Shown here: positions 9,647 through 63,793 of the stretch, one piece after another
Layout of the letters: each line of letters starts with the position of its first letter
Position numbering within the stretch: position 1 is the stretch's first letter
Assembly (NCBI GenBank): GCA_964187785.1
Contig: OZ076409.1
Span: 1,364,001-1,428,000 of the forward strand
Source: Amphiscolops sp. MND2022
Lineage: Eukaryota
Reading direction: 5' to 3'
Length of the DNA: 64,000 nucleotides
Notes under the pieces: generated by a model
The model's database searches: none
Told to the model about the DNA's origin: nothing
Seen by the model: only the letters and a program-made list of their open reading frames with translations
Translations under genes and position numbers: made by a program

Positions 9647-9703
9647 GAAAGAATTTGATATAGTTACAATTAAAACCTTGAGGATTATCTCTATAGCTCT
9701 GTT
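9647..9703 (+). repeat. Left copy of 57-bp direct duplication flanking the Polinton
   Basis: gaaagaatttgatatag...ctatagctctgtt; 56/57 identical to 24784-24840. Confidence 0.95.
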
Positions 9704-9873
9704 AGTAGTATAGGAAATCCCGATACGGGCCACAAAAACCCCAAAAATTAAAAGTCCTCAAAACCATTGATTTTAAGCACTTTTTAGAAAACAAATCATC
9801 GCGAAAGCTCCCGCAAAATAGTGTTTTTACCATGAAGCAAAATTCACTAACCTCTATAGTTTAATGTCAACGT
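9704..9873 (+). repeat. Polinton left TIR (170 bp)
   Basis: agtagtataggaaatccc...aatgtcaacgt; 9707-9873 is the exact reverse complement of 24617-24783. Confidence 0.95.
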
Positions 9874-9904
9874 CGCACACACAACAATGAAAAATAACTA
9901 ATAA

Positions 9905-10336
9905 ATGGCGCGACAGCTAACACAGCTTCACAATTACCTCTCATTCAAAGACTTTGTTGAAAAATATGGATTAAAAAACGAAGCAACTTCCAATGTAAAA
10001 ATAAAAGAAATACTTAATGAATTAAATATTCCCTGTGGAATATACATGAGAGATGATAAGTTTAACACTACCAGTGGTATAGTTAACTTACATCCCTCAG
10101 TGGGAACACATTGGGTTATGTGTACAAATCAAAATTATTTTGATCCATATGGATGCCCACCCCCAACTAATATACTTAATCATATTAAAAATGGTATTTA
10201 TTCAGAATATCAAATTCAGACCAACGACAGTTATTGCGCGGCGTATTGTTTATACACACTGTATCTCACAAATAAAATTGGGTTCAAAAATGCAGTACTA
10301 AATTTATACTACCAAACTTTCAAACTTAATAAATGA
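9905..10336 (+). CDS. Adenain-like (adenoviral-type) cysteine maturation protease
   Basis: GTHWV (His), YFDPYG (Asp), QIQ (oxyanion Gln) and YCAAYC (Cys) in the order typical of the Polinton protease. Confidence 0.92.
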   Translation: MARQLTQLHNYLSFKDFVEKYGLKNEATSNVKIKEILNELNIPCGIYMRDDKFNTTSGIVNLHPSVGTHWVMCTNQNYFDPYGCPPPTNILNHIKNGIYSEYQIQTNDSYCAAYCLYTLYLTNKIGFKNAVLNLYYQTFKLNK

Positions 10337-10539
10337 AGAAAATTAGTAATTATTCAACTCAATATAAAATTATCTCGCACAGCTCCACAGAACAGCTTCA
10401 CAATCAAAATCATGGGAAAAATACAACAAATTTGCAGAAGCTATCGCGGAAGCTATCGCATAAGAAAACATTATCAAAAGATAGACAAGAATTTATAAAT
10501 AACATTTCCGCTAGTGGATTCAAACAATTTAATCTATAA
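10333..10539 (+). CDS. Small basic hypothetical protein (possible core/DNA-condensing peptide)
   Basis: 68 aa, Lys-rich, ATAAATG start, packed between protease and penton. Confidence 0.6.
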   Translation: MKKISNYSTQYKIISHSSTEQLHNQNHGKNTTNLQKLSRKLSHKKTLSKDRQEFINNISASGFKQFNL

Positions 10540-10542
10540 TAA

Positions 10543-11850
10543 ATGGATCTATCCACCTTCGTAACATATGATAAAAAAGAATCTCTTCTTTTAAGTATTG
10601 CAAAATCTAATCAAGAAATTGTTGAAAATACTCATTCTAAACCACAAGAAACTCTAGAATTTAAAATGACTAAACAAAAAGAATCTTTCTCATTTGATGT
10701 TCCGTTACTACTGCCTGAAAAATGGATGATGGGAGTAACAAGTTTAGAAGTATACAACACTGTATATAACATTACTGAAAAGAATAACAAACTACAAATT
10801 ATTCTGAATGATCAACAACTCAAAGAACTTAAACTTGATAGTGGATTAATACTGTTTGTTGAAGATTTATACGTTACTTATTTTGGTAAACCTTACACAC
10901 TTAGTGAGAATAATGAAGTTGTAGAAAAGGCCAATAAACTTATTACTAATAGTTATTCTAAAAAGAATAAACTTACTAGAATAGATTTTGATTATTTAAC
11001 AAAGATAGTTAAATCACTCAATGAAATATACAACAATCGCCTCAACCAGGAAACAATAAACCAAGAAAAATTAAACCAAGAAAAACTAAATCGAGAAAGA
11101 ATAATTAAAGCATACAAAGATCACCTAAAACAGGTAAAAATAAATTGGGAAGAAATAAAGTGGGAGGAAATAATTTTGGAGGACGCGAAAGCTACCGCGA
11201 CAACTAACACAGCTTCGCAAACAACCCAAGAAAATCACGAAGATGACAAAGATGACGAAGATGACGAAGTAAACCAAGTAAACCAAGCAAACCAAATAAA
11301 TCAAATAAATTTACCCCCTTTTGACATTGTTGAAAACGATTTCTTTGAAATTTATCTAACACCAGGAGTTTATGAACTAGTTGATATAAATAATGCTATT
11401 AAACAAAAAATTAATGAAAGTGATTATGATTTCAAATTTGATTTAATACCTGACACAATATCAATGAAATCAGTTTTAACAACCTCAAACAAAATTCAAT
11501 TTAACTCCAAACTTAACACAGTCTTGGGCTTTACACACACAGTATACCCACCCGGAACTCACACTTCAGAAAAACCAGTCATGATAACAACCACCGACAA
11601 AGTTCATCTGAAGTGCGACTGTGTAGATGGTTCAATTGTTAATGGTATACGAGAACAAATTTTATTTTCTTTCAATTTAAGCGCACCTCCCGGATATAAA
11701 ATTATAAAAGAACCCACAACTGTTTTGTACAAATCAATTAACAAAACACGACTGGACACCATTCAATTTTTCCTTGAAGACTCTAATCATGATTCAGTTG
11801 ATTTCAACGGGGAGACACTCACCTTCACAATTCAAATTATCAAAATTTAA
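10543..11850 (+). CDS. Minor capsid protein (penton, single jelly roll) with large internal insertion
   Basis: C-terminus CDCVDGSIVNG..ILFSF..PPGYKI..P..LY..IQFFLED...VDFNGE is typical of Polinton pentons; the N-terminal YNITEKNNK and LTPGVYE..IN motifs are separated by ~180 aa. Confidence 0.85.
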   Translation: MDLSTFVTYDKKESLLLSIAKSNQEIVENTHSKPQETLEFKMTKQKESFSFDVPLLLPEKWMMGVTSLEVYNTVYNITEKNNKLQIILNDQQLKELKLDSGLILFVEDLYVTYFGKPYTLSENNEVVEKANKLITNSYSKKNKLTRIDFDYLTKIVKSLNEIYNNRLNQETINQEKLNQEKLNRERIIKAYKDHLKQVKINWEEIKWEEIILEDAKATATTNTASQTTQENHEDDKDDEDDEVNQVNQANQINQINLPPFDIVENDFFEIYLTPGVYELVDINNAIKQKINESDYDFKFDLIPDTISMKSVLTTSNKIQFNSKLNTVLGFTHTVYPPGTHTSEKPVMITTTDKVHLKCDCVDGSIVNGIREQILFSFNLSAPPGYKIIKEPTTVLYKSINKTRLDTIQFFLEDSNHDSVDFNGETLTFTIQIIKI

Positions 11851-11868
11851 TACTTTTAATAATAATAA

Positions 11869-12387
11869 ATGAGTTATAATAAATTTATAAATAATTCATA
11901 TTGTGTTGGTGGAAAACATTATTCTCCCACCAGAAATATTTATGGAGATATTACAAACACTGGGATGCAGATGGGCAGGCCCGTAAAAATATTACGTGGC
12001 AACTGCGTAACGTGTAACAGAAACAAGAGTCTAATTGTATCTGACCGACCAGTAGATGCGGAAGGATTGGGAGACTTTTTCAAACATTTAGGTTCTGCAG
12101 CCAAAAATGTTGGAAAGAAAATACTCAATAACCCAGCAAGAGCTCTAGAAGTAGCAGCAAATATTGGAACTGCAGCAGCAAGTAAAAATCCACGATTAAT
12201 TGCCGCAACTGCCCCCGATGTTATTAAATTTGTTCATCAAGGGAAGGGCCTATACAAAGCTGAAGCATTGTCGAGTAAAGGCAGCAAAATAGGCAACGCA
12301 AGCGGCAGCAAAGCAGCTAACACAAGCAACACAAACAGAAAAGCAAGAACTAATAGTAAAGGCCTTTATCTGGGGAAAATCCACTAG
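11869..12387 (+). CDS. Putative core/virion protein: Zn-ribbon-like N-terminus plus amphipathic helix
   Basis: YCVGGKH...LRGNCVTCNRNKS, then EGLGDFFKHLGSAAKNVGKKIL; basic; GxGL-like motifs. Confidence 0.7.
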   Translation: MSYNKFINNSYCVGGKHYSPTRNIYGDITNTGMQMGRPVKILRGNCVTCNRNKSLIVSDRPVDAEGLGDFFKHLGSAAKNVGKKILNNPARALEVAANIGTAAASKNPRLIAATAPDVIKFVHQGKGLYKAEALSSKGSKIGNASGSKAANTSNTNRKARTNSKGLYLGKIH

Positions 12388-12413
12388 TTATATGCATTAA
12401 TTATACTTAATAA

Positions 12414-13523
12414 ATGTATTCAATTCACACCCGAGATGATTTAGAAAAATTAAAAAAATTACAAGAAACAAAATCTTTAGTACGCAAAGAAAGATTAAAA
12501 GAGAAACTAGGGAAGCAAGACTTTCATTATGACCTTGAAGAAGTTTTTGAACCTGTTACTACAAAGCAGGTGGAATCAAATGAAAAACAACTACAAGCCA
12601 TTGACAAACAAACCCAAGGGGTTACACAAGCCATTGAAAATCAGACAAGAGCAATAGAACACAATAATAATACTCTTCAAAATTCTATTAAAGAAGGAAT
12701 AAAACAATATAATGAAAATACAAATCATATCAACCAACTTCTTACAAGTCTTGTTAATTCCAACCAGGTTGATTCTAGTATTGTAAAAACAGTTTCTAAT
12801 TTACTTAATGACAAAAACAAAAGTCAATTTAGTTTAGAACCCATAGAAGGTTATCCACACAGCTCCACAAATTTATTCACAATTAATCCCCATAACCCAC
12901 AACAAGTACTAATCAAAGGTTCAACAATAACTTTCGAGAATGGGAATTCATACAATTTAAATGACCCAGATCTTCAATATTTTATAGCTAATACACAATT
13001 TGACAAACAAATAAATAACTGGGACTCAATTTATAACTTCTTAAATGATATGAAATATGATCTAAATTATGGAGATAAAAAATCAATCAGATATCAATTT
13101 ATTAAAGAATTATACTCTCGCTTTCAATTGCAGGGCTACACGCAAGGCTTCGCGCAGGACTACACGCAAGGCTTCGCGGGGAGCTCTGCACAAGCACATG
13201 ATTTGCAGGGCTTCGCGGGGAGCTCTACACAGGGCCAATCACGCGAAGCTACGCAGGGCTTCACAGGAAGTGGATTGCGAAAGCTATCACGAAGCTACGC
13301 AAATGGCGAAAGCTCCACACAACAGTACATTTTCCTCCCATCTGACCCAGACGAATTAGTGGATCAATTGAAACTACTTTATTTTGAAAAAGTTGGAGGA
13401 AATGATAGTTTTTTGATTATTGAACAAATTATTGCAATTATAGACAAGTTATTGGAGTATGAATGCATATCACCTTCTCAACACCAAAATATACGAAGTT
13501 CCACAATCTCGTTAATTACTTAA
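12414..13523 (+). CDS. Conserved Polinton protein (coiled-coil N-terminus; C-terminal DPxELVxxLxLL..GN motif)
   Basis: LEEVFEPVT, GSGL and YIFLPSDPDELVDQLKLL..KVGGND..IIAIIDKL resemble a recurrent Polinton gene of unknown function. Confidence 0.75.
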   Translation: MYSIHTRDDLEKLKKLQETKSLVRKERLKEKLGKQDFHYDLEEVFEPVTTKQVESNEKQLQAIDKQTQGVTQAIENQTRAIEHNNNTLQNSIKEGIKQYNENTNHINQLLTSLVNSNQVDSSIVKTVSNLLNDKNKSQFSLEPIEGYPHSSTNLFTINPHNPQQVLIKGSTITFENGNSYNLNDPDLQYFIANTQFDKQINNWDSIYNFLNDMKYDLNYGDKKSIRYQFIKELYSRFQLQGYTQGFAQDYTQGFAGSSAQAHDLQGFAGSSTQGQSREATQGFTGSGLRKLSRSYANGESSTQQYIFLPSDPDELVDQLKLLYFEKVGGNDSFLIIEQIIAIIDKLLEYECISPSQHQNIRSSTISLIT

Positions 13524-14565
13524 AGGATCAGTTTGTGGATTAAAGATCTTGTAATTTGGATTAGATTCATTACAAATCCTGTACCTACTCCCATTTTTAT
13601 CTTCCAATCTGTTTATTAAAAGGTAGTTGAATTTTTCGTTCCATGCTTCTCTACACAAACTTTTGAATTCCTCATAAGACAAATCAAAACCTGATATGTC
13701 CCTATGAATATGTTCTACATCTTTCAGTGTTTGTTGAAATAAAATTATGATATTACTATTGTTTCTAACTGTCTTTTTTGGTGCATCAAAATAACTCTGA
13801 CATAAATAATAAACATCACAAGATTTGTGCCTTCCCCTAGTAAAAAATGGATCAATCAATTTCTGGTTGGAGTCTAACATATCATCAAATACTACACAAC
13901 ACCCCCTATACTCTTCCAAATCCCCCACATTTTCTTCCACTTCTATTCCTTGCGAAGCTCCACTAATATAAAGCTCCACATCCTCATATTGTTCCGGACT
14001 CCTTGTAATGATACGAATTTGTTTCTCTGGATCTTCCAAACGAATCAATCGTAATTTATTCAACAACAAATGAGTCCTACCACAAAATGATGGCCCAACT
14101 ATTAATGTTCTATTAGTTTCGTTCACACCACTATTAGCATTAGCTCCCGCGTTAGCTCCCGCGTTAGCTCCCGCGTTAGCTTCCGCATTATTATTATTAC
14201 TGTGTGAAGACACGCCTCGTGGTAACTCTCGCTGTAGCTCTAGTGTTAGCTGTCGCGATAGCTGTCGCGGAAGCAAATCACCCCCAGTATGCTGATTATA
14301 GTGCTGATTATAATTATAGTGTTGTTTATAGTGTTGTTTTTTAAGGTGTGACCTTAAATAACTCTTATTTAATTCCTTATTACAAAATTCACACCTCACC
14401 TTTTTATTAAAACATTGAATGCATGAAGAGTATATTTTACCATTTTTGTATGAATAAAAAGTATTACAATTCTTCATAATATTACAGTCTTTACATCTTT
14501 TTTTTATTACTACAATCATCACACAAACTTTTTTCACTACTTTTATTACAAATTAAGCAATTCAT
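13512..14565 (-). pseudogene. Zn-finger-fused FtsK/A32-type packaging ATPase 1 (apparent +1 frameshift; Walker A K>R)
   Basis: Walker A GPSFCGRT, Walker B VVFDD, FFTRGRH..YLCQ. The true start is likely the ATAAATG at 14565 (MNCLICNK..LCDDC), which joins the 13512-14537 frame if the 8-nt homopolymer at 14498-14505 is 7 nt. N-terminus has CxxC pairs and a C2H2 finger. Confidence 0.85.
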
Positions 14566-14579
14566 TTATTTAGTAAAAA

Positions 14580-14860
14580 ATCACTAATTTCCTCTAATAA
14601 TCACTATGTAATCACTATGTAATCACTATGTAATCACTAAGCAAATTTCACTAAATCACTAAGGTTTCACTATGTGTCTCTAAGAGTATTCATTTCTCTA
14701 AGATTAAAGATTATAGTGAAATTTAGTGAAAATAAATGCTCTTAGTGAAACCTTAGTGATTTAGTGAGAAATTTAGAGATTCTTAGAGATCACTAAATTC
14801 CTCTAAGAATCTCTAAATTTCTCTAAACTTCTCTAAACTTCTTTAAGAATCACTATATTT
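14580..14860. other. Intergenic repeat and double-hairpin region between the two ATPase genes
   Basis: tcactatgtaa repeats; 25-bp perfect IR 14648-14672/14743-14767; 23-bp perfect IR 14766-14788/14801-14823. Confidence 0.75.
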
Positions 14861-14889
14861 TTTTTGTTAATTTCTCGCGATAGCTTCCG

Positions 14890-16107
14890 CTAATTACCCA
14901 GTTTATTTTTAGTAAAACTTTTTGCCTGATCATAAATTAAATTTTTAAAGTTCTCTTTAAATGAATCACTAATCAGTGGTTTTTGCATGCGTTGTACGTA
15001 GTTGTCTATTTTGGATTCATTTACTCTGATGTTATTTTGTTTGCAATAAAACACATAATAATAAGCTATGTTGAGTGGTGTTATTTCAATTGTCTGGTCG
15101 GACATTTCCTCTAAGAAAATTTTGAGTCTGTTGTATTCATCACCAGTGAAAAAGTAACTTTCATAAGCAACGAGTTGTTCTGGACCCCATTTACTTCGTT
15201 TGCTCGAATCATAAATTAACTTGTACTTGTCGTTTAGAATCTTGTATTTCTGACTCCTTGTGTCAAATTCAATTATGCCATATTCTAACTGATCCCGGTA
15301 GTATTTCCAATTAAGCCCATTAACTGCGTCTTTGATCCCATAAGTTTGTACAATCGACTCGAAGAAATTATCTGGGTTATTAATTGTTAAGTATATTTTG
15401 AAGCAATTTTCCCTCACGACTGGAAGAACATCCTTTGCATAGTGAGCAAGGTATATCACTTGAATACCCAAGTGTCTACCAAATCGGAAAAGGTCTTCTA
15501 CTTTTGTTTTAAGACTCTTATATGCACCTGCATCATCCAGTACAACAATTTTATTAGCAAGTGATTCAATGCATACTTTTTCCAACTGCAGTAGCGGTAC
15601 AAAATTTTGAGAGGGAAACTCACGTTCATCTCGCCCGAAAACTACGTAAGTTCTTTGCCCTGCAACTTGTGCGTTAGCTATCGCCAAATAATGCTTTAAA
15701 AAACTTGTCTTCCCAGAGCCACTACTACCATAAATTATGAAATGCGCGTTGCAATGAGAGATATTATGAGATGGGGATTCTTCATGCATAGCTTCTTGTT
15801 CACGTTCCTGGTTTGTCAGATGAGAGTATTTGAACCCTTCAAATTGTAGTAGTTTTTTATAAATTGTTTTAAACTGTCTAGGGCGAATATAATTCCAATA
15901 TATTACAACAAAAATACCTATTAATATAATTAAACATACAATAAACATAGGATTTGTGATTACTTTATAAATTTGTGTTTTCTGATACCAATACAGTTTG
16001 TTGGCTCCTGCGGTAGCTTTCGCGCCAGCTCCATCACCTGTGCTAACTCCTGTGCTAACTCCTTGATCATTATTTCTATAGCTCTGGAAGCAATAATCAA
16101 TATTCAT
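14890..16107 (-). CDS. Second FtsK/A32-type ATPase with N-terminal transmembrane helix
   Basis: TM MFIVCLIILIGIFVVIYW; Walker A GSSGSGKT; Walker B VVLDD; LFRFGRH..IYLAH. Confidence 0.85.
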   Translation of the reverse strand: MNIDYCFQSYRNNDQGVSTGVSTGDGAGAKATAGANKLYWYQKTQIYKVITNPMFIVCLIILIGIFVVIYWNYIRPRQFKTIYKKLLQFEGFKYSHLTNQEREQEAMHEESPSHNISHCNAHFIIYGSSGSGKTSFLKHYLAIANAQVAGQRTYVVFGRDEREFPSQNFVPLLQLEKVCIESLANKIVVLDDAGAYKSLKTKVEDLFRFGRHLGIQVIYLAHYAKDVLPVVRENCFKIYLTINNPDNFFESIVQTYGIKDAVNGLNWKYYRDQLEYGIIEFDTRSQKYKILNDKYKLIYDSSKRSKWGPEQLVAYESYFFTGDEYNRLKIFLEEMSDQTIEITPLNIAYYYVFYCKQNNIRVNESKIDNYVQRMQKPLISDSFKENFKNLIYDQAKSFTKNKLGN

Positions 16108-16130
16108 TTATTTATAAAAAATTGTTATAA

Positions 16131-17075
16131 ATGAACATGAATCAAAAGGCGAAAGCTGGCACAGGAGACGGCGCGGAGCTTCGCGATAGCTCTCGCAAGA
16201 CAGAAATTGTTAGAGAAATATTCTCGCCTGTAATCAAAAAGTTTCAAAGAATTCAAATACAAACTCACTATAAAGATGAATGTTGGAGTATCGATTTAAT
16301 TGATCGCTCAAACTTAAGCAAATACAACAAAAACTACAAGTTTATTTTCACAATAATTGACAATCATACTAAATATGCATGGGCGATTCCTCTTAAAGAT
16401 AAATCAGGAAACAGTAGAACAACTGCATTAAAAAGTCTTATCGAAAAAACAAAAAGAAAACCACACAAAATATGGAGTCATAGAGGTAAAGAGTTTTACA
16501 ACACAACATTTTTACACTATTTAAAAGAGCAAAGTATTCAAATTTATTCAACGAATTCAGATTTGAAGGCTGTTTTTGTTGAACGCTTCAATAGAACACT
16601 TTTGGACTTAATCAAAGAACCAATGTATATTGAGGGTAAAGGTAACTGGTTGAATCACATTGATGCTGCTTTACAAAAGTATAATAATCGTGTCCATACC
16701 ACAACCAAAATGACACCTTTTGAAATGAGTTTTAAGAGCGCAATACCACGGAGCCACGCGCGCAGCTTCGCCAATCTGATACCTAATATTAATAAATTGC
16801 ACACAGCTTCGCCCAAGTTCCAAGTGGGAGTTTTTGTAAGAGTTCCTGACAAAAGGAACATTTATTCAAAAGGTTATACAACAAATTGGAATAGAGAACT
16901 TTTCAAAATACACAGCATCAACAAAACAAACCCAGTAAAATACACTCTAAATGATGAAAACGGAGAAATTATTCAAGGAAAATACTATGAACAAGAACTT
17001 TTAAGAAGCATATTCGACTTTGACTCTAACAACAAAACGTTAGAAAGTATGAATATTTTCCACAGGTTTGAGTAA
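16131..17075 (+). CDS. Retroviral-type (RVE) integrase; second catalytic Asp appears replaced by His
   Basis: WSIDLID, IIDNHTKYAW, KIWSHRGKEF (usually SD/TD-xGxEF), VERFNRTL, YNNRVH..MTP, KGYTTNW; no chromodomain. Confidence 0.92.
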   Translation: MNMNQKAKAGTGDGAELRDSSRKTEIVREIFSPVIKKFQRIQIQTHYKDECWSIDLIDRSNLSKYNKNYKFIFTIIDNHTKYAWAIPLKDKSGNSRTTALKSLIEKTKRKPHKIWSHRGKEFYNTTFLHYLKEQSIQIYSTNSDLKAVFVERFNRTLLDLIKEPMYIEGKGNWLNHIDAALQKYNNRVHTTTKMTPFEMSFKSAIPRSHARSFANLIPNINKLHTASPKFQVGVFVRVPDKRNIYSKGYTTNWNRELFKIHSINKTNPVKYTLNDENGEIIQGKYYEQELLRSIFDFDSNNKTLESMNIFHRFE

Positions 17076-17134
17076 TTTTCGACGTAGTTTCGCGGAGCTT
17101 TCGCGATAGCTTTCGCAATATTTTTTTATTATAA

Positions 17135-18367
17135 ATGAACACAGATATGTTTTCTTTAAAAAATAAATACACACTCGAAAAACCTATTCATAAAATTGAT
17201 TTCATAAAGTATAGTCCAAGTAGTTTGGCGACAGTCAATAATAATAATTCAAATATTTCAATCAGTTTACCAAGAGAAGATGCATACATATGTTTACAAA
17301 ATAGTTTCATAAGTCTAGAATTTGAAGTACTTAAAAACAATAATACAAGATTTGCTGATGGTGATGAAATTGGATTGGTTAACTTTGGGCCAATCTCTTT
17401 ATTTAGTGAAGCCAAATTAACAACTTCTAGTGGGAAACACCTAGAAAAAGTTGACAACTTGCACTTGATTTCTTTAATGTATAAACTTCTGACAAGCACT
17501 AAATCCACAAGTCAATTAATGTATGGGTTTGAAGAATATACTACTATCAGAAGACAAGAACTAACAAACAACAAAAATGAGAAAGGAACCTTTTTTGTGA
17601 GAATAAAACTAAAAGACTTGTTTGGATTTGCTGATCAAGAAAAAATAACTTATGGGTTGGGCTACACATTAACTCTCAAACGGAACACTAACAATGACGC
17701 CATTTTAAGAAGTGTTGGAGTGGATGCTGCAAAAGTGGTTATTAAAGACATTGGTTGGTATATTCCACACTATGTTCCATCACTGGAAAACCAACAACTT
17801 GTCATGGACCAAATTTTAAATAAAGATCCAACCGAATTGAGTTACACAGAACGAATTATTTTTAGAGAAGATGTTAACACAAATTCGAATTGGACATTTG
17901 AATTAGGCAGCTCGGGTGAGTCCTGTCCAACTTTTGTGATTGTTGGATTTCAAGCTAGAAATAAAATTGATTCTCAGGTTCATGATAATGCAGTGTTTGA
18001 CCGGTTGCCAATTAGTAATGCTGTTTGTAAAATAGGATCAGAAAAATATCCCGATGATGGGATAGAATGTGACTACGACCGTGACAAATATGATCAAGCA
18101 TACAGTGAAATTGAAAACTTCTATCACTTACATTCTGAAACTAGCTTACTCAATCCATTTATTGATTTGCATAAATTCAGGACAAATTACCCCCTATTTG
18201 TATTTGACCTCAGCAAACAAAAAGACCAAATAGCTTCTCAACCAATCCGTTTAGAATTTAAATTTAATGCTGCCATTGATGTAGCAGATTATATAGCTTA
18301 TGCGCTAGTCCTAACACCTAAACTGATAAGTATCAGTAGTGATGGGCAAAGGCATTTTTTGGTTTGA
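17135..18367 (+). CDS. Major capsid protein (double jelly roll)
   Basis: 410 aa, beta-rich; DAYICLQNSFISLEF, SLFSEAKL, PTFVIVGFQ and YPLFVFDLSKQ resemble the Polinton MCP; position within the element. Confidence 0.88.
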   Translation: MNTDMFSLKNKYTLEKPIHKIDFIKYSPSSLATVNNNNSNISISLPREDAYICLQNSFISLEFEVLKNNNTRFADGDEIGLVNFGPISLFSEAKLTTSSGKHLEKVDNLHLISLMYKLLTSTKSTSQLMYGFEEYTTIRRQELTNNKNEKGTFFVRIKLKDLFGFADQEKITYGLGYTLTLKRNTNNDAILRSVGVDAAKVVIKDIGWYIPHYVPSLENQQLVMDQILNKDPTELSYTERIIFREDVNTNSNWTFELGSSGESCPTFVIVGFQARNKIDSQVHDNAVFDRLPISNAVCKIGSEKYPDDGIECDYDRDKYDQAYSEIENFYHLHSETSLLNPFIDLHKFRTNYPLFVFDLSKQKDQIASQPIRLEFKFNAAIDVADYIAYALVLTPKLISISSDGQRHFLV

Positions 18368-18547
18368 TATGATAGGAATGATGAATCATAGATTAAAAAC
18401 TATAATTGATGTGATAACTAACGTGATAACTAACGTGATAAATGATGATAATAAATGATCATAAAATAATTATAATTAGCGTGTGTGCGAGAGCTAGCGC
18501 GAAAGCTATTGCGAAGCTACGCGCCACAATAGTTATCACGATAGTTA

Positions 18548-21500
18548 TCACAAAAAATGGGCCCGATCACTTATCAGATTTAAAAGATCTTGATGATTCA
18601 ATTTTTCTTTCAGAGTCCAAATGTTATAGTATATTTCTTCATCTGGGAGGCTTGTGCCATCCCTTGTGCTCAGTTCGGTGTAATACAAACCAACTAACTT
18701 TATACAAAGTATACAAGGACAATCACCTTTTTGTGTGTGTTTATCCCATGATAAACTTTGTATTGGATTCAAGTACATACGCTTGTCATCAAAAGGATTC
18801 AAAGCTAGCTTATCTTGTTTCTGAACAGTTAAGTTGTGAGCATTACTTCTAATAGAATAATTAGTTGCCGTAGTTGTTTCAGAATTAAATAATGAATTTA
18901 TAAATTGTGAATAAATTGGTGTATGTTGTATTCCTTTTTGTTTTGACTTCTGTGTTACCTTCTGAACTGAGCTTCCATAGCTAAAAGAATATGATTTAGA
19001 TCTCAAAGCTATGAAGTTGTCTAATTCAATAATTGGTGATGTTTCTATTTTCATTTTACCTATAACTTTCTTGTTAATAGAATTGTACAACTCATGACTT
19101 GGGTCAAGCTCACTAAAATCAAAATCATCTTTGAAGTATTCCAAATCATTTATAAGGTCTCCAGTTTTAATACTTAGAATGAATGAGTCTGTATCCGTGT
19201 AATGCAGTTTAATGTTTGCATCGCTGCGCGAACTGTAATATGGTTGTAATTTGTGATAATAAAACTCATACATTAACAATTTACTCAGTTCTAAAACACT
19301 AAACCCCAAGTATATTGGTTTATCAAAAATTACTTTTTCCTTATCAAACTTGTAAACACTGAATTCGGAGTAATGATTAGTGATTCCTTTAAAGTTTAAC
19401 TTCGATTGTCTTTTTATTATTTGATCAATATTGGTGTGGGGGATAAACTCTAAATTAGTCCGGTCTCTAACATTTTCCATAGTCTTCCCAAAGAAAGCGT
19501 TGTTCATTAATTTGTACAAGTCTTTTTCAAATTTTGTTTTTGCTTTGGTGCGTTTTTGTGTGTTATGATTAATGTATTTTTCTAACCAAAGTGATTGTTT
19601 GAACCGGTAGATTGTGTGAATCTTTGTTACTTTCATCCCCAAATTCGTGTAAAACTTGAACATCCTGTAGTGCATCATATAATTATATTTGTTTGTTAGG
19701 TCACACATAAGTTTCTCGGTTGGTTTGTAATTGGGCTGTTTTACTTTGTTCATGTATTCTGAGAAAAGATTTGGATCGGTTTTTGTTTGATAAGGACAAA
19801 GTGGAAAGTTTTCGGTTTTTTCTTTAATTTCTGCTGGATATTCTAAATCGCATTCTATAAAATATCCAAATTCATTGTCATCTGGTGTATTCAAAATGTC
19901 TTCTTTAATTTCATTCATCAGTGCAGAATCAGATTGCATAACTTCGCCGTGACAGTTCTGCGCGAAGCTACGCATCTTTTTAAAGTCTCCAATAGGAAGG
20001 TATTGACTCATTGCCCATCCATAAAGATTATTTGCATCAATGTACAAAAGTTTCGGACTTTCATTTGACTCAATGAATCTGGGTCCCATTACACTTGAAA
20101 TTCCACCACGAATATTATTTTCAAGTAGTAATAATAACTGTTTGTCTTTTATGAAATCTAATTTAATTTTAGTAAGTTTTAAACCAGCTTTCCATGTATA
20201 ACCAGGTAAAGAGTAACTGTACAACGGATTGATGCCGTACATAAGCGTGCTTGTTTCAACAAAGTTTTCGAACACGTCAGTGAGTTGTAGTACATCCATT
20301 TTTAAGTACAATTCTGTTAGTTCTTGTGCTGTTGTAATGTTGTAAGTGTCAATCAATTGTTGGGTTCTTTTTATATCATCCTCGCATGGGTAAGATTGAT
20401 TCAGTGTTGACCAATAGTCCTCTTTTGTTAGATTTAGTGGTTCATGCAGGTTGTTAAGATTGAATTTTTCGTATGGATAAGCTAGTTTTTTCTTAAATAA
20501 ATCATCAGTTAGGCCCTCATTTTGCATATAAGGAAAATCATTTAATGATGTTATAAGTTTTTGTAGACTACTACTCAAAAATCTGTATGAATCTAAAAAC
20601 CTTAAACAACCTACTTGCACACTTACATAATTTTCCAATGACTTTGGTATAATATTTATTGGTAACTTTAGATTATAAGCTGATGTTAAGAGTTCTTCAA
20701 AAATTAAATGACAATCATAACCACTGAAATTATGGAAAAATATAGGAACAAACGAACTTGACTTTTTTTTACAATTTAAATTACATTTGTTGTGGGCTGC
20801 TCCTCGGTACTTGCCTGTAAGGTGATCGTGGTCTCAAACTGTATCCTCACCAAGTGGATTTTCACAAAGCCAACACACTTTGGATTGTTGAAATGATTTT
20901 TCTTCTTCGGGGGTTATTTCAAGAGGAATATTAGTTTCGAAATAAATATTTGCAATTTTTTCTAAAGTCAACATTTCATTTACAAACCATGTTACACACG
21001 ATTCACCAAAGTATGAGCTGTAATTATTACCAAATGGTGAAATTATATAAAATCCTACTGCAATTGGAATTTGTTTAAATAATACTTTGGGCGCGATAGC
21101 TACCACAGCTTCGTGGTCATTTGTGCGAAGCTCCGCGGGTTGTGAAACTGCGTGATTAATGCATTCAAAATCTGCATATACTCTTATTGGTACGGGAACT
21201 TTCATATGATAATCTTCGAACTTTAAGTCATCCTTCCAACTGAATGTGATATTAGTTGGTTGTTGTTTTTGACAACGGTCAATGTGTTGATTGAGAATAT
21301 CCTCAGAACTAAATGCAGTTAGACATCTTCTACACACCCATTTCATGTGCGAATCCTTATTTAGTAAGCAATGCAATTTTGTTATTAGACAATAATGATT
21401 TTCAAATAGTACCAAGTCAATTTGTGATTGTAAGTAATTTTTGTTAATATGAATTGGTGTTAAAACTGTTTTTGTAAGTTCAAAAACATTTACGTTTAAA

Positions 21501-22462
21501 TTATTTAAGTTTTCGAACTTGGGAATATCTTTAATTTTCATGGGGAATTCTAAACCATTAAAAATGAGTTTGTTCGTGTGCATTGAATAACTTGATGTTC
21601 TATTTTTATGATCCTCAACAGGAAAAAGGTGTGCTAGGATGCACCACAAAAAGCAAAATTGATCATCATTTTTTATATTTATAAATGATTTATTATTCTT
21701 ATATTTTTCTGGCAACTCAACCCACGAAGAAGCTTGAATATCATTAACTTTATAAATTTCTAATATAACAGTGACAATACCATTTAACACAAAACCTGAT
21801 CCTTCTAATTGTTCATCATCTAATTTCTGCATTAATGTGTTATGCTGTGTGCCGAAGGCAATCTGTGTGCGAAGCTGCGCGTGATTGTAATTAAAATCTG
21901 ATTTAACCCATTTGTGAAATACAACTTCCTCATCATTAACTATTTTTGAAAACTTAGCTAAATAACTCAATTGGAACTTGTATCGGGGAAAGTAATTTTT
22001 ATTTAGTAAATCATTAATCTGTTCTTCAAGATGATTTGTTGGATTTACTCTCAGTTTAATGTATGTTTTTTCATTCACAATTATTTCTACGTTAGTTCCT
22101 ACGTTAGTTCCTACGTTAGTTCCAGAATCATGTAGTGTATTACCAAATGTGTTTTTTGTAGCGTTGCGATAGCTTTCGCGGTTTTGACTTCTTAACGTGT
22201 GAATTTCACTTTGGAAATGTCTTGAATTACTTATATATTTACCACAATCTTCACACCAAATTTGTGTAGCTTCGCGTTGTTGTTTGGTTTTGTTTTTATG
22301 TTCATCTGAATTTAGATGATTAGACTTGTCAGACAATGGCATAAATGTATTACATTTTTTACAATAATATTGATTTAATTTTTGTAAATGTTTTATTGAT
22401 TTTAGATGATCAGACTTGTAAGCTTTTTTATAATCAGAATTACAAATACTGCAGTTCTCCAT
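18548..22462 (-). pseudogene. Protein-primed family B DNA polymerase (~1304 aa) with one in-frame TGA at 20834-20836
   Basis: ORFs 20834-22462 and 18548-20638 are in the same frame. Read-through gives EDTV*DHDHLTGKYRGAAHNKCNL (EndoVII/HNH-like insert) and FFHNFSGYD (ExoII). Also ExoI YADFE; Pol motifs YIDANNLYG, KLMNNAFFGK, YTDTDS; vOTU-like NDDQFCFLWC..HYCLI; N-terminal C2H2-like fingers. Confidence 0.95.
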
Positions 22463-22574
22463 TTATTTATAATAAATTTATGAATTTAATAGAAGCATAT
22501 TTTTCAATAGTATATTTTTCAATTATTAGTGTTAATTTTTATTTTATTTTTTAAGTTAAAATTGAATAAATTAA

Positions 22575-23251
22575 TTATAAAAAATTGTGTGGTTTAAGTG
22601 GTATTGTTGGTGGTGTGTGTGAAGCTACTTGTGATTTTGTATGCGAAGCTGTGTGCGAAGCTGTGCTCGAAGCTGCGCGTGATTTTGTGTGAATTTCCTG
22701 TGAAGCTACCTGCGAAGCTTCGCGATAATTTTCAAATTGAGTCACAAATCGGTGATATTCTTTTTCATCTATATGATTATCTTCTAGGCTGGCGACATAA
22801 AGTTGTCTAAAGTCGTCAAGAGTCTTCTGAATAATAGTGTACTTAAGTTTATAATTTTGCTCCTTTTTCTTCAAATAACTAGAACAAATCTTAACAAGGA
22901 TACCAGTTGTACAACCAACTCCTGCAGCGATTGGAACAACTATAATACCCACACCAGTAATACTTAGTGAGATTGATGCTGAAGTTGTTCCAATCACTAT
23001 AATGCCATCGAGGGAGTTAATTAGGTTATTTATTAGCTTGTATTTGTTGTATTTCTGTTTGTATTTATTTTCTTCCATTTCAAAATATTTCATCATTAGA
23101 CTAATGTTTTGAATAGAATTATTGAAACTATTTACTTTTTGTAATTCGCTCTGCAACGCGCTATGCAATCGCTTATTTATCATTGATTCTACATCATATG
23201 GTGCTGGGGGAGAAGCCGTTGGGGTCAGGGGGGATAGAGTTTTTGTTCCAT
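22575..23251 (-). CDS. Membrane protein (hydrophobic hairpin, coiled-coil flanks); N-terminus apparently frameshifted
   Basis: Hydrophobic GIIVIGTTSASISLSITGVGIIVVPIAAGVGCTTGILV. The ATAAATG at 23251 joins the 23183 frame if the 6-nt run at 23228-23233 is 7 nt, giving MEQKLYPPLTPTASPPAPYDVESMINK. Confidence 0.7.
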
Positions 23252-23254
23252 TTA

Positions 23255-24082
23255 TTAATCATATAAAATGAAATTTATTTCCGTTGGTGTTAATTTCATT
23301 CTGTGTTTCATATCAACAAGGTCTTTATAGGAATCTTTTTTCAATGACTCCAGAATTGATTGTCTGGTAGAATATTCTAAATCAGACAGATAATATTCAC
23401 CATCTGAAGTAGGTATTGTTTTTCCATACTTTTCCTTTAAATAGGATTCGCTAAAAGTTAGATAATTTGCAAAAGCTTGATCTTTATTGGGAAAGGAATC
23501 GAACAAACCTTTGTCATAAAGCAGTTGAATTATGTTGTTAGTTATAGTAATTTTATTTTGATCTAGGCTATTAAAAATTTTATTAATTTCATCTTCATTT
23601 AAAATCATTCCAGCTTGACCCACCTGACTCATAAACTTTAAATTACGGACTGTTAACATTTCAAAACTATTGTTGTGTATTAAATTTAGTACCTCATTTA
23701 CTAAAACAGTTCTTTGTTCGGCGAAAGATTTTTTCATACTTTGTTCTAAATTATTTATAGTTTTTGAAAGGTCTGAAAACTGGGAATAAATATCATTCAT
23801 TAACTTTGTGTTTAATAAAACATTTTGAATTTCCTGGTGGTCTAGTGTTTGATGCGCCTTCGCGATAGCTACCGCGGAAGCTGTCACGTCTAGCATTTTT
23901 TCTTCTACTTGATTTTCTATGTCTTTTTCAAAATCGCGTTGCAAATCTTCTTTTAATTTGGAATGTGTTATTTGGGCTAATTTTTCTTGACTTTTTATCA
24001 TGTCTTTTAGCTCTCGATATTCCCTCAGTTTTAGCTGTTCACTAGAATAACCAAACTTATGAAGAGACGGAGTTTCATACAT
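23255..24082 (-). CDS. Hypothetical helical/coiled-coil protein
   Basis: 275-aa ORF with ATAAATG start inside the element; no recognised domain. Confidence 0.7.
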   Translation of the reverse strand: MYETPSLHKFGYSSEQLKLREYRELKDMIKSQEKLAQITHSKLKEDLQRDFEKDIENQVEEKMLDVTASAVAIAKAHQTLDHQEIQNVLLNTKLMNDIYSQFSDLSKTINNLEQSMKKSFAEQRTVLVNEVLNLIHNNSFEMLTVRNLKFMSQVGQAGMILNEDEINKIFNSLDQNKITITNNIIQLLYDKGLFDSFPNKDQAFANYLTFSESYLKEKYGKTIPTSDGEYYLSDLEYSTRQSILESLKKDSYKDLVDMKHRMKLTPTEINFILYD

Positions 24083-24122
24083 TTATTAAGATGAAAAAGT
24101 TGAAAAATACGCGAAGCTACGC

Positions 24123-24381
24123 AAAACCCATAGGCATGCTCATTTGCATTGGTATATGCATTGACATGCCTATGGTAAACTCAAAGCCCATCGGGAGTCC
24201 GTTCCACTAAGAGTTTCCACAGCAGGGATTATCCTTTTTAAGAACTGTGCCATTGGTGATTATTCTCCCATAGCATGTAAGTTGTAACAAAGACTGGGGG
24301 ACGTTGGATAGAAGTGAACCCCAAACACTCCGGCCGAAGCCTTAACTTTAGTCAATGCTATAACCACTAAGCTATGGGAGA
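24123..24381 (-). ncRNA. Candidate Pol III structured RNA (tRNA-like/VA-RNA-like)
   Basis: Minus strand: TATATAA at 24408-24402, A-box TAGCTTAGTGG at 24374-24364, GGC-UUCG-GCC at 24341-24332, B-box-like GGTTCACTTC at 24320-24311, 11-bp stem 24381-24371/24274-24264, first T4 at 24126-24123. Confidence 0.45.
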
Positions 24382-24426
24382 CGAATCAATGTTAGTTGTA
24401 GTTATATAAGAATAACGTATGCGCCG

Positions 24427-24614
24427 GTACATTAACGTTGGCTGTACATTAACGCTGGCTGTACAGCAACGTTGGTTGTACATTAACGTTGGTTGTACAT
24501 TAACGCTGGTTGTACATTAATGCGGGTTGTGCATTAATGCTGGTTGTGCATTAATGCTGGTTGTGCATTAATGCTGGTTGTGCATTAATGCTGGTTGTAC
24601 ATTAACGCTGGTTG
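24427..24614. repeat. Subterminal 17-bp tandem array (~11 copies) next to the right TIR
   Basis: Unit gtacattaacgYtggYt with gtgcattaatgctggtt variants. Confidence 0.9.
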
Positions 24615-24616
24615 CA

Positions 24617-24783
24617 ACGTTGACATTAAACTATAGAGGTTAGTGAATTTTGCTTCATGGTAAAAACACTATTTTGCGGGAGCTTTCGCGATGATTTGTT
24701 TTCTAAAAAGTGCTTAAAATCAATGGTTTTGAGGACTTTTAATTTTTGGGGTTTTTGTGGCCCGTATCGGGATTTCCTATACT
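24617..24783 (-). repeat. Polinton right TIR (167 bp; lacks terminal ACT)
   Basis: Ends ...gatttcctatact rather than ...ctatactact. Confidence 0.95.
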
Positions 24784-24840
24784 GAAAGAATTTGATATAG
24801 TTACAATTAAAACCTTGAGGATTATCTCTATAGCACTGTT
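24784..24840 (+). repeat. Right copy of 57-bp flanking duplication
   Basis: gaaagaatttgatatag...ctatagcactgtt. Confidence 0.95.
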
Positions 24841-47649: not shown

Positions 47650-47848
47650 TGTAGTAGAGGTCATTGAAGTGTTTGTAAATACGTACTAACAACCTGTCAA
47701 AAGTCTAGCTCTAGAATTCTATGCTAGCATCAGTTGCCACGGAGCCTTGAGAGAAAACACGTTTGATAGAAAACATTTCAATTCAGTTCGATAATACATT
47801 CTTCATCCTCTCAACCTTTTATATTCTTATTCGAGTTCCACGTCAACA
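47650..47848 (+). repeat. 5-prime LTR
   Basis: tgtagtagagg...cacgtcaaca. Confidence 0.97.
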
Positions 47849-50800
47849 TGGCGCTGCGAGCAGAAAGCAGCAATTCTTCCTCTTTAACACTGTCAACAAC
47901 TGCAATGTCGCACCTCGTGGGGCTTCCAGTGTATTGGCATGAGGCCAATTCAACCCCTACTATGGACTGGGACAAGTGGCTGGATCTTTTCCAGGTGGCC
48001 GTCATGGCCAAATTCTCAATCTCAATCACCGAGCTGACCCGTGAAGCTGATCAGCAGAATCCAAGGGCACGAGCTTTATTGGGGGATATGGACGAAGACC
48101 CTGCCAACAAAAAAGTGGTTAGTGTAATGTACTTGTCACTTGGAGAGGCGGCAAGGAAGTTGTTCAAAGATAAATATCCCCACACGACCCTGTGGAATCT
48201 AAAGGTGAGAGAACTAATACAACTAGCCACGGACTGTTTCCAGATAAAAAGAAACCGAACTCTCGACCGGCACAAATTTTTTTCGAGAATGCAGCAACCC
48301 GGCGAGACGCTTCAACAATTTTGGCACACGCTAAATGGGCTAGCAGCCCTTTGTGACTTCGGGGAGATAACGAAAACCCTTGTATTAGATATGTTCATCC
48401 TTCACATGAACAATAAGAAGGTACAGGAGAAACTTTGTACAGAGCCCCGCGAGCCAGATCAAGCCTTAGAATTTGCAATCGCATTCGAGGAGGGGGTGAA
48501 AAGACAAAAATCATACGGCTTACAAACAACAGAAAACCCCAAAATTGCGGTGAAAACTGAGCCTGTGTATGCAATTGAAAAATCAGCTAACCAGAGGGAA
48601 TGCTTCAGATGTGGGGAATCCAACTTTACCCCGGATCACATAAAAAATTGTACAGCAACAAACTACAGATGTAAATTCTGCAAAATTGTCGGGCATTTGG
48701 AAAAATGCTGTAATAAGAAGTTTCCCCAACGACAAAAAGAAATGCTGCAGAGACTAAAATCCAGAAGCAGTAACTTTCAAGGAATGCGAAGAGTGAATTA
48801 CATTGATGAGGAAAGCGAGGAGGAGGAATCTGACAGTAACGAAGAGCAATTAGTTCTCCAAATCGACGGAAATGGAAGCAAGCCGTTCTACATGGAAGGA
48901 ACCATGTGTGGAAATTATTTTAAAGCTATCATTGATACTGGGTCCCCGGTATCTATTTTTACAAAACGAGATTTGACAAAAATCATCGGAAAAAGAAAAG
49001 TGGTTATCAGGGAAATGATAGACAACGAGCGGTATGTTGATTACAACAAGAAACCCCTGGATCTATTGGGCTATCAATTTGTACGCGTAGAAGTTGCTGG
49101 TGTTACTGTTTCGAAGGCAAGAGTGCTAGTAGCACCAAACAGCGGAAAGTCCATAATTGGCCGTGATTGGTTAATTGCTCTACGCTACAACATTAGCCAG
49201 CCAATAGAAAGAGGTGAGTGTAAAGTAAACACTAAAACGGAGGGTGACGCCGAAACGATAAATGAGATAAGTCCCCAAGAAAGTATCAGTCCCGAAGTTA
49301 AACAAATAATGAGGGAATTTCCAGATTTGTTCAAGAGAAAAGGTCGAGTAAAAAATTACGAAATTAAAATCGATATGAAAGATAATGCGAAAATTTCACA
49401 ACAAAAGGGCCGCAGAATTCCTATTCAACTACAAGAGCAAGTAGATAAAGAAATTGAAAAACTGCTAAAAGACGGCCATATCGAAAAAGTAGACAAAATT
49501 CAAGATGATGTATTCATCCAACCAACAGTCATTACGGTTAAAAAGGATAAATCGGTGAAAATAGCGCTAGATGCACGTGCCCTGAATGAATCAATAGCTA
49601 AAGACAAATACCAGATGCCAAACTTAGATAATTTGATAGATATGATAGCAGAAGAATTGGAAAAAAGCGAAGGGGAGGCCTGGTATTCGTCTGTAGATAT
49701 GACTTACGCCTACGGGCAAATCCCACTACATGAGCTAACAAAAAGACATTGTAATTTTCAGATAGTTGGAGGAAAATCAACTGGTACATATCGATTTACT
49801 ACCGGGTACTACGGACTTACAGTAATGCCAACTGAATTTCAAAAATTAATGGATTTAACGCTAGCCAATGTAAATAGTGTATTTGTGTATATAGACGATA
49901 TCTTAATTGTAACTAAGGGAACTAAGCAACAGCATGTAAATAAAGTGAGAGAAGTCATGAGAATACTGGACGACGCCAATTTGCAGCTAAAGGCGGGAAA
50001 ATGCATAATTGCTCAAGACAGCATAGAATGGCTAGGCTTCAAATTAACGCGAACTGGCATTTCCCCAATTAACACAAAATCCCAGGGCATAAGCGAAAAA
50101 CTACGACCAACCAATTTAAAACAATTACGCTCATTTTTGGGCGCAGTAAATCAATTTAATAAATTTATACCTAGTTTAGCCTCAATTAGTTTCCCTTTTA
50201 GATCCATTTTAAAGAAAGATGCAGAGTGGGAGTGGAATGAAGATCACGAAAAAGCTTTTGTACAAATTAATAAAGAAATTAAGAGTGTAGTAGAATTATC
50301 ACATTTCAAACGGAACCAAGAAATTAGAATAATTTGTGACGCAAGCAAAAGTGGATTAGGCGCAGTACTACAACAAAAACAAAGCAATAATGAATGGAGA
50401 CCAATTTGCTTTGCCTCACGTTTTTTAACAGATTTCGAAACAAAATATTCCATAAATGAATTGGAACTTTTAGCAATCGTATGGGCAGTCGAACATTTTA
50501 AAAATTATGTATATGGTGTACAGTTCAAAGTAATATCAGACCACAAAGCGTTGATGTCAGTTTTGAAACCAAATAGAGGGAATAAAACCTTTTCAAGCAG
50601 GTTAACTAGATGGGTAGACAGATTACTACCCTTTGATTTCGAAGTAGTGCATGTAGCCGGGAGGACACTAGGAATGGCGGATTATTTATCGCGTCATCCA
50701 ACTGAATTAGAGGGAGCATCATTAAAAGCAGAAGCACTGTGGAATGAATGGTTTACTGTAAATAGTGTAAATAGTTTGAAAGATGTTTTAGAAGACGAGA

Positions 50801-57976: not shown

Positions 57977-58305
57977 AGATGTCCTTCCTTTTCAATCTTC
58001 GGACAATATTTATTGTAAAGTATCTTGCCTTTTAGGATATAGGTGATTCCACTCAATCCGTCTGAGTTCAAATGAACGTTATCCTTTTTTAGGTGTTTCT
58101 TGCCAAACACTTGCCTGGAAATTCCTCTGAACTTCCAGCCTTCTTGACAAGAAGCAAGTAAAGAATTAACTTCTTTTGCTTGGAGAGGTTGAGAGTTGCG
58201 TAAAGGTATACCAAGAACGAAAACCTTTTTAGCTTTGGTTAATGAAAGATTTGCAAGATCAGATATCTGTCGAACCAAGTTTTTTGTCGTAGTGGCAAAT
58301 AGGTT
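57977..58305 (-). pseudogene. C-terminal half of an SGNH/GDSL-hydrolase-like ORF
   Basis: KVFVLGIPLRN..EVNSLL...HLKKDNVHLNSDG (block V DxxH). Confidence 0.7.
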
Positions 58306-63300: not shown

Positions 63301-63736
63301 ACTTTAGGTGCGATAAATGCTTACTCACGCTCATGAGACTTCCGAAAGTTTTCTTCCAATTCTCAAAGCGTTTTTCGAGTTCGCTTTCTAATCTTTTCAG
63401 GATTTCCTTACGGTTGCCTTGGAACTTATCTTTCAGAAATGGAAGATGTTTTTCAAACTCCTTGCGCAGCTTGCTCTTTGAAGTTGTGTAAGTTACGAAG
63501 AACTTACCGACGTCTACCCAAACTGTTGGATCCTGAACTTGCAGACTTTGGAAATCCGAGTCTAAATTTCTGAGAATCAAAATAAGATCTGAGACACGTT
63601 TTTCGTGTTCTATCCATTCTTTCATTGTTGATGAATTTTTCAAGCAGTCAGTAAAATAGACTTTTCGTTCATCCCCACCTTTTGACGATGTCATATATGT
63701 GGGGTCCCAGAAATCGCTTTCATTGGATTTGGCCAT
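60334..63736 (-). pseudogene. BEL/Pao gag-protease, fragmented by frameshifts and stops
   Basis: LPKLKLSDF..DPLEW..F, KMSHLK..VKGKAK; CPLKDGDH..C, CFCCLNSH..C, CGVNGCTKKHNKLLH; ALCDTGS; TAG at 60334-60336 in VGLL*(W). Confidence 0.9.
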
Positions 63737-63775
63737 TTTGTACTTCAAGTGTTGATTGGATACAAAATAGTGCTT

Positions 63776-63793
63776 TCCCGGGTCGCGGCACCA
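63776..63793 (-). promoter_or_regulatory. Primer binding site (tRNA-His-like)
   Basis: Minus strand TGGTGCCGCGACCCGGGA resembles the complement of the tRNA-His 3-prime end. Confidence 0.75.

Follow-up and report, generated by a model that had tools for sequence, protein, structure and literature searches.

A 64,000-nucleotide stretch of contig OZ076409.1 from Amphiscolops sp. MND2022 (assembly GCA_964187785.1, positions 1,364,001 to 1,428,000) was analysed; this whole stretch is called the window, and all coordinates below refer to it unless another contig is named. The window contains a decayed copy of an integrated Polinton/Maverick-type element of about 15.1 kb (9704–24783), recognised by its terminal inverted repeats (TIRs), an AGTAGT left end, matches to an integrase and a double jelly-roll (DJR) capsid protein, and motifs of a protein-primed family B polymerase and a protease found by eye. 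Two adjacent genes of this element, both on the minus strand, encode ATPase 1 (13512–14565) and ATPase 2 (14890–16107). An earlier note on this DNA had described two neighbouring same-strand genes here and called both products packaging-type ATPases. Both points hold, since the two proteins are placed in the A32/FtsK-HerA class, and not in another P-loop class, by PF04665 and by the predicted fold of ATPase 2.

The ATPase 2 gene is intact and encodes 405 amino acids (aa), comprising a predicted signal-anchor helix, an A32/FtsK-HerA motor and a helical C-terminal domain. The predicted transmembrane helix (aa 53–71; 15895–15951, minus strand) has a 19-residue Kyte-Doolittle mean of 2.79, against 0.7 for the best segment of ATPase 1; all membrane helix calls here come from hydropathy only, with no dedicated transmembrane predictor. 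Basic residues and a conserved FxG motif come after the helix; F89, in the region of this motif, is nearly invariant. The motor domain (aa 120–300; 15208–15750, minus strand) carries GSSGSGKT, VVLDD, RFGRH, a histidine at the sensor position and RxN. The C-terminal extension (aa 301–405, about 105 residues; 14893–15207, minus strand) is modelled with a predicted local distance difference test score (pLDDT) of about 50–60. Its majority-residue share is 0.94 in 120 close homologs, and it can be aligned in most distant members. The helix, the intact GKT and the long C-terminal extension reported in the earlier note were thus all recovered. The note had also read both Walker motifs and an RxRH motif in each protein; the Walker motifs are present in both and RxRH in ATPase 1 (TRGRH), but the motif of ATPase 2 is GRH.

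The structure model of ATPase 2 has a pLDDT of 62, which is higher in the core. The best match of the motor domain is B204 of Sulfolobus turreted icosahedral virus 2 (STIV2; Z 15.5, root-mean-square deviation 2.7, 169 residues aligned). B204 was the top match in both Foldseek, as the earlier note had suggested trying, and VIA, followed by VirB4, HerA, TcpA and FtsK, and ranks 1–19 are all FtsK-HerA-type by entry title. ATPase 2 also matches viral A32-like proteins in BFVD, its nearest Atlas clusters are viral A32/packaging ATPases, and its PF04665 match is above the cut-off; a sequence search of the PDB gave matches at the level of Walker A only. With a predicted RecA-like core fold and with Walker A, Walker B, the arginine finger and a polar sensor (H) all present, ATPase 2 is a member of the A32/FtsK-HerA class as judged by motifs and model. 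The sensor residue is described as "mostly glutamine" in the accessible part of PMC11703096. Histidine is also found at this position in other A32-type proteins (P0415 and L001), and it is therefore no sign of inactivity in ATPase 2.

Two sets of ATPase 2 homologs were compared. The close set holds the best 120 of 281 proteins (69–96% identity), and the distant set holds 14 near-full-length proteins (24–47% identity), the longest distant ones among 150 listed of 284 representative matches, which were mostly fragments. A further search gave 33 proteins, 14 of which are distant family members on short contigs and bear no telling names. Walker A, RH and the H sensor were present in all 14 distant members. 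The hydrophobic helix was found in all 120 close homologs and in 12 of the 14 distant ones; of the two exceptions, one begins after the helix position and the other is weakly hydrophobic. Motif positions are conserved at 0.99 in the homolog alignments, compared with 0.62–0.69 in the linkers, and among 167 non-majority residues in the helix only 7 are charged or polar. These comparisons indicate that the predicted helix is a trait of the ATPase 2 family and not an accident. Over 47 aligned family members, PF04665 was matched by 45, PF01580 by 3 and PF05707 by 2. ATPase 2 thus differs from the packaging ATPases of DJR viruses, which are motors without their own membrane anchor, and with its single helix and the rarity of PF01580 it does not conform to cellular FtsK/SpoIIIE, which have a multi-pass N-terminal domain, either. 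It apparently belongs to a wider, undescribed family with a predicted membrane anchor. That ATPase 2 is a captured passenger without function, spread by a recent burst of copies, is very improbable: one genome or a few probably supplied the close homologs and searches favour intact copies, but the motifs and the helix are far more conserved than the linkers across copies of 69–96% identity, and the architecture is retained in members that are only about 24% identical.

ATPase 1 consists of a zinc module, a low-complexity linker and an A32-type motor; in this copy the gene is frameshifted near the 5′ end and has an arginine at the position of the Walker A lysine. The open frame as read in this copy (13512–14519, minus strand) encodes 335 aa with three CxxC pairs and HxxxxH, the Walker B motif VVFDD, TRGRH, a Q sensor and RxN. 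The CxxC pairs and the C2H2 finger of the earlier note are therefore present. The zinc module, CxxC-F-CxxC-CxxC-H, occupies aa 9–63 of this open reading frame (ORF; 14331–14495, minus strand). Upstream of it, a 24-codon frame with a TAAATG start (14491–14565, minus strand) contains two further CxxC and matches the N-terminus of sibling ATPase 1 proteins. All homolog comparisons for ATPase 1 were made with the 120 best-listed of 1163 proteins at an expect value (E) of up to 0.001. An MNCLIC-like N-terminus occurs in 68 of them and is encoded in the window from 14565 in a different frame. The ATG at 14519 has no TAAATG context, while the ATG at 14565 has it, as do 10 of 10 other gene starts. From the sibling N-termini and the start context, the gene extends over 13512–14565 and is slightly longer than the ORF. 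The frameshift suspected in the earlier note is real; it precedes the 335-aa ORF and maps to the A run at 14498–14505 or close to it; the same evidence rules out the argument that there is no frameshift because the ORF is open.

The Walker A motif of ATPase 1 reads GPSFCGRT with the arginine codon AGG (14073–14096, minus strand), as the earlier note had it. At the lysine position, the 120 homologs have no arginine, the canonical residue in 119 and glutamate in one, and a similarly shifted start was seen in a single homolog (P0233). The comparison with siblings that the earlier note proposed thus shows both features to be specific to this copy or rare. The one sequencing run over the Walker A and A-run sites covers them too thinly to separate mutation from assembly error. 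The arginine and the frameshift are damage to this copy, or an assembly error in it, and not traits of the family. A reading of ATPase 1 as an inactive, catalytically dead regulatory subunit fails, because the arginine is confined to this decayed copy. In the family, Walker A, Walker B, the arginine finger and the Q sensor are kept, with 116–120 of 120 homologs agreeing at key residues, and this copy departs at the Walker A lysine.

The PF04665 match of ATPase 1 is just under the cut-off. Its structure model (pLDDT 39.7) is too poor for a fold search with the core; at the profile level ATPase 1 matches ATPase 2 with 98.4% probability. A fold search with the N-terminus gave weak zinc-finger matches (Z up to 3.7), and the zinc module resembles the N-termini of phage endonucleases (phrog_2340, E 1.3e-4). 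No hydrophobic helix was found in any of the 120 homologs. The zinc fingers of ATPase 1, as the alignments indicate, are a family trait and not an accident. Between the two ATPase genes, 14520–14889 contains tandem repeats of 10–11 nt and a perfect 25-nt inverted repeat (14648–14672 and 14743–14767).

The two ATPases are only distantly related. No significant BLAST match was found between them, and the profile match has 24% identity over 118 columns, which rules out a recent tandem duplication as the origin of the pair. They fall in separate groups in two trees, the phylogeny that the earlier note had proposed, and ATPase 1 groups with ordinary Polinton and polinton-like virus (PLV)-type proteins with moderate support and on long branches. 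The sizes of the source contigs were compared between the two homolog lists: 44 values are shared between lists of 144 and 147 distinct ones, and a jitter control gave a mean of 0.04 and a maximum of 2. The shared-size set takes in members of three ATPase 2 and two ATPase 1 clusters. Over 24 pairs, made up of the window and 23 of the first 25 shared sizes (two ambiguous ones were dropped), the distances for the two ATPases are correlated (rho 0.55, p 2e-4). As judged from matching contig sizes rather than from DNA, the two-ATPase pair is the norm among sibling copies.

One way to account for the pair, considered in the earlier note as a heteromeric motor, is a mixed ring in which ATPase 1 and ATPase 2 would be subunits of a single motor that reads DNA through the zinc fingers and is anchored by the helix. 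The genes are adjacent and co-inherited, and both proteins keep the arginine finger, which acts on the neighbouring subunit (role given in the accessible part of PMC11703096). Specialised subunits of rings often lose catalytic residues. Neither family has done so, and both ATPases keep all catalytic motifs across their families, as far as the alignments reach. Further, the cores are only 24% identical, and in three of three distant loci, described below, the neighbour of the membrane ATPase is a zinc module without an ATPase domain. A mixed ring is therefore improbable.

A metagenome scan gave three distant loci (L002, L003 and L004), each with a membrane ATPase. In all three, a same-strand ORF adjoining the membrane ATPase carries the CxxC-F-CxxC-CxxC-H repeat once or twice, lacks an ATPase domain and has the same architecture as the zinc module of ATPase 1. 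This ORF lies upstream in L002 and L003, abutting the ATPase in L003, and downstream in L004. A profile of the five zinc repeats from these loci finds ATPase 1 among 252 ORFs at E 4.4e-7, whereas the next best ORF reaches E 0.06. This architecture is missing from ten further CxxC-rich ORFs, among them the ones in two control loci and the polymerase of the element itself. Each of three control loci has a single ATPase in the stretch examined, and by eye its N-terminus is not hydrophobic. Five ATPase alignments run against viral contigs returned nothing, and another scan gave an ordinary virophage-like ATPase (L001); a scan of prokaryotic genomes returned nothing, and a motif scan only four unrelated phage genes. 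At 1–282 of L002 (minus strand) an ORF starts with a repeat that we take to be reminiscent of viral fibre proteins, hinting that L002 comes from a virus-like element. The source contig of L009 is a mirror image around about 14335 (11351–17800), so that L009 and L010 show one and the same contig from its two sides; this may be a hairpin end or an assembly artefact.

The distant loci bear on two further readings. The membrane ATPase and the zinc gene may be a cassette from another virus-like element that serves a function other than packaging, for instance the movement or tethering of DNA at the nuclear envelope or at the factory of a helper virus; the zinc module would then have been joined to ATPase 1 by a local accident, useful or harmless. 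The stand-alone zinc module, found up- or downstream in distant loci, is consistent with this. So are the separation of ATPase 2 from ATPase 1 in both trees and the presence of membrane-anchored coupling and conjugation ATPases (VirB4, TcpA, TrwB and EccC) among the fold neighbours of ATPase 2, and zinc fingers are a frequent fusion partner of Polinton ATPases for which no second ATPase was noted. On the other side, the best structural match of ATPase 2 is a viral packaging NTPase, the Atlas clusters nearest to it are likewise viral, and its gene sits between ATPase 1 and the integrase-capsid genes. An accessory role of this kind is a tentative possibility that deserves to be kept in view, though we consider it unlikely.

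Alternatively, ATPase 2 could be the real packaging motor of an internal-membrane particle, such as the earlier note had considered, with ATPase 1 as a DNA-binding regulator or loader. It is the only ATPase seen in the distant loci, its family is old and conserved, and its PF04665 match passes the cut-off that ATPase 1 just misses. However, a second ATPase could have gone unseen on distant contigs of this short length. Of the two proteins, moreover, it is ATPase 1 whose motifs (RGRH-Q-RxN) are closer to the canonical set and which groups, with weak support, with Polinton/PLV-type ATPases that occur as single copies. We regard this assignment as rather improbable.

The reading that we favour, tentatively and with somewhat less than even confidence, is a scheme of two motors: a membrane-tethered pump (ATPase 2) and a zinc-finger adaptor fused to an ordinary packaging ATPase (ATPase 1). 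In this scheme ATPase 2 would span the membrane once by a signal anchor, would expose its motor to the cytosol or the nucleoplasm and would form a ring of its own. The zinc module would bind element DNA, possibly at AGCT-N-CGCG palindromes, and would deliver it to the membrane motor. An old unit of two genes, for a membrane ATPase and a zinc protein, may have come to sit upstream of the packaging ATPase, whose gene could then have taken up the zinc module; the fusion would tie the membrane motor to the packaging ATPase. The membrane motor may hold or move the genome at the site of particle assembly, a membrane derived from the host, and ATPase 1 would select and package the genome. Ring formation, DNA-stimulated ATP hydrolysis and DNA translocation are predicted for either ATPase from its class. 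The earlier note had proposed a division of labour between DNA recognition and membrane-tethered translocation. The neighbourhood of zinc module and membrane ATPase fits this proposal, but ATPase 1 is not a catalytically dead partner, the arginine being found in this decayed copy only.

Several points weigh against the two-motor scheme. Its basis is sequence and predicted structure. The pairing of the two ATPases comes from matching contig sizes and not from DNA. Every close homolog is an ENA entry, in most cases on a long contig. As these entries probably stem from one host assembly or a few, they do not count as independent and speak for constraint within the family, not for independent origins. 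In an approximately unbiased (AU) test with five outgroups, a single clade of both ATPases was not rejected (p 0.12), so the acquired unit stays a supposition. The pattern that selected the zinc repeats came from ATPase 1, so the test is partly circular, and in the reverse test a profile of the ATPase 1 zinc region found L004 at E 7e-4, while L002 and L003 were not significant but beat 200 and 199 of 200 shuffles. There are only three distant loci, and their contigs (1.3–3.3 kb) are too short to show a second ATPase or a capsid gene. Zinc-finger ORFs of another type lie near an ordinary ATPase in the control loci L009 and L011. The zinc module resembles fingers of mobile endonucleases and could serve gene regulation instead.

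Palindromic AGCT-N(1-2)-CGCG occurs at 42 sites (both strands) in the element (9800–24690) and at none in 49 kb of flank. The sites fall within the TIRs, in intergenic stretches and in variable linkers, that of ATPase 1 (14140–14270) among them, and often have a 12-nt spacing. Among the 120 homologs of each protein, 95 for ATPase 1 and 64 for ATPase 2 contain peptides of the type encoded by the palindrome. The palindrome is absent from L002–L004, which leaves its connection with the zinc module without support beyond the family of the window. A more specific idea goes beyond the two-motor scheme, namely that this is a Polinton-like lineage building its particles on or with a lipid membrane, by means of a signal-anchored A32-type pump and a soluble ATPase guided by zinc fingers that read genome-wide palindromes. 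On the present sequence comparisons we hold it to be doubtful.

The remaining features of the element are as follows. The left TIR arm (9707–9877, 171 nt) is 99% complementary to the right arm (24613–24783), as expected of a Polinton/Maverick, and the right arm ends 3 nt before the mirror image of the left end. The left end reads AGTAGT and the right end is 3 nt short; an (AGT)2 or (AG)3 end motif is reported for Mavericks in the accessible part of PMC8097293. Instead of the 6-bp target site duplication of intact Mavericks, a direct duplication of about 56 nt flanks the element (9647–9703, plus strand, and 24784–24840; 55 of 56 identical), and a 30-mer from it occurs just twice in the window, in these two copies. 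The copy is therefore classed as Polinton-type by gene content and not as an intact Maverick. The long duplication and the short right end suggest an aberrant integration or a later repair.

In the library search, the element was found to encode an rve integrase (16131–17075, plus strand; PF00665, E 1.5e-7; its 32.0 bits fall 0.6 bit short of the cut-off, 32.6) and a DJR capsid protein (17135–18367, plus strand; PF21738, E 8e-24), both in keeping with a Polinton/Maverick. The minus-strand gene at 18548–22462, which has no convincing library match, is presumably a protein-primed family B polymerase, as we recognised the motifs of this family by eye; an in-frame stop at 20834–20836 divides it into frames of 542 and 761 codons. 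The gene at 9905–10336 (plus strand) has His/Asp/Gln-Cys motifs, recognised by eye, and no library match; it probably encodes an adenain-like cysteine protease. The 435-aa ORF at 10543–11850 (plus strand), also without a library match, may be a minor capsid protein (penton candidate), going by a resemblance that the library did not confirm. At 22575–23258 (minus strand), a 227-codon frame has a hydrophobic stretch, and a TAAATG start at 23251 opens 8 codons only; this gene looks frameshifted as well. The copy is regarded as decayed because of the polymerase stop, this second apparent frameshift and the duplication of about 56 nt in place of 6 bp.

The TAAATG context is found at all gene starts examined (9905, 10333, 10543, 11869, 12414, 14565, 16107, 16131, 17135, 22462 and 24082) and at three of five starts in L002–L004. 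Such starts are reminiscent of the late starts of poxviruses. An array of 11 copies of a 17-nt unit (24427–24614) lies just inside the right TIR and has no counterpart at the left end. Elsewhere in the window, 47770–52554 (plus strand) contains an intact-looking pol frame of a long terminal repeat retrotransposon (1594 codons), and 58259–63829 (minus strand) a fragmented Pao/BEL element; such retrotransposon genes mark the host as a eukaryote.

Among the closest known systems is the A32-like ATPase (PF04665) of Polintons/Mavericks (adintoviruses), which shares the element context, the motif set and the Pfam family, and which ATPase 1 fits best. One ATPase per element is described in the accessible parts of PMC4028283, PMC8097293, PMC8502044, PMC10748475, PMC11161782, PMC11296320, 10.64898/2026.06.19.733378 and 10.1101/2024.03.25.586562; Table S1 of PMC4028283 scores the presence of the ATPase and not its copy number. 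The present element encodes a pair: ATPase 2 has a predicted anchor and a helical domain at the C-terminus, ATPase 1 a multi-CxxC zinc module. A literature search for two-ATPase Polintons or a membrane-anchored A32 found no description, although it reached few subscription papers, and supplements such as the gene annotations of 10.64898/2026.06.19.733378 could hold such genomes. The novelty that the earlier note saw in two-ATPase Polintons with these fusions is supported insofar as no paper was found, and is weakened by the zinc-finger-fused A32 proteins of Atlas clusters, which are not rare, and by the several A32-like genes of giant viruses. The latter likewise encode more than one A32-like protein, with two entries each for Medusavirus stheno and Gaeavirus; the accessible part of PMC8575486 does not settle their copy number. 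Those genomes are large, whereas the present element has 15 kb and about 11 genes, and the likeness concerns A32 copy number. The pair found here suggests that A32 is not always single-copy in Polintons, though it is used as their phylogenetic marker.

ATPase 2 shares its predicted core fold (Z 15.5), Walker A and B, the arginine finger and a polar sensor with STIV/STIV2 B204 and vaccinia A32, from internal-membrane DJR viruses. These proteins are essentially motor-only, whereas ATPase 2 has its own N-terminal helix and H instead of Q as the sensor. A32-type motors of membrane-containing viruses are described as motor-only, and a family with a built-in anchor would depart from this pattern. 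Inovirus gp1/Zot is likewise a viral FtsK-HerA ATPase with a transmembrane segment, and the Zot N-domain is among the fold matches of ATPase 2. In gp1/Zot the helix follows the ATPase, whereas in ATPase 2 it precedes the motor, and PF05707 is rare in the family (2 of 47 members). The accessible part of PMC11703096 names a transmembrane domain only for the ATPases of filamentous phages.

FtsK/SpoIIIE, TcpA and TrwB likewise have an N-terminal membrane anchor before a DNA-pumping motor. ATPase 2 differs from them in having one predicted helix, a much smaller size, a eukaryotic virus-like context and PF01580 in only 3 of 47 members. FtsK uses a separate domain for reading sequence, and by analogy the zinc module may play a similar role. 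Polinton particles have not yet been seen, according to the accessible part of 10.64898/2026.06.19.733378. For the question of how Polintons pick and package their DNA, or involve a membrane, the anchored family with its recurring zinc partner offers a testable handle on the location of the motor and on its loader. If the lipid-membrane, two-motor reading were true, ATPase 2 would be the first packaging ATPase of a DJR virus with its own membrane anchor, and a viral counterpart of FtsK.

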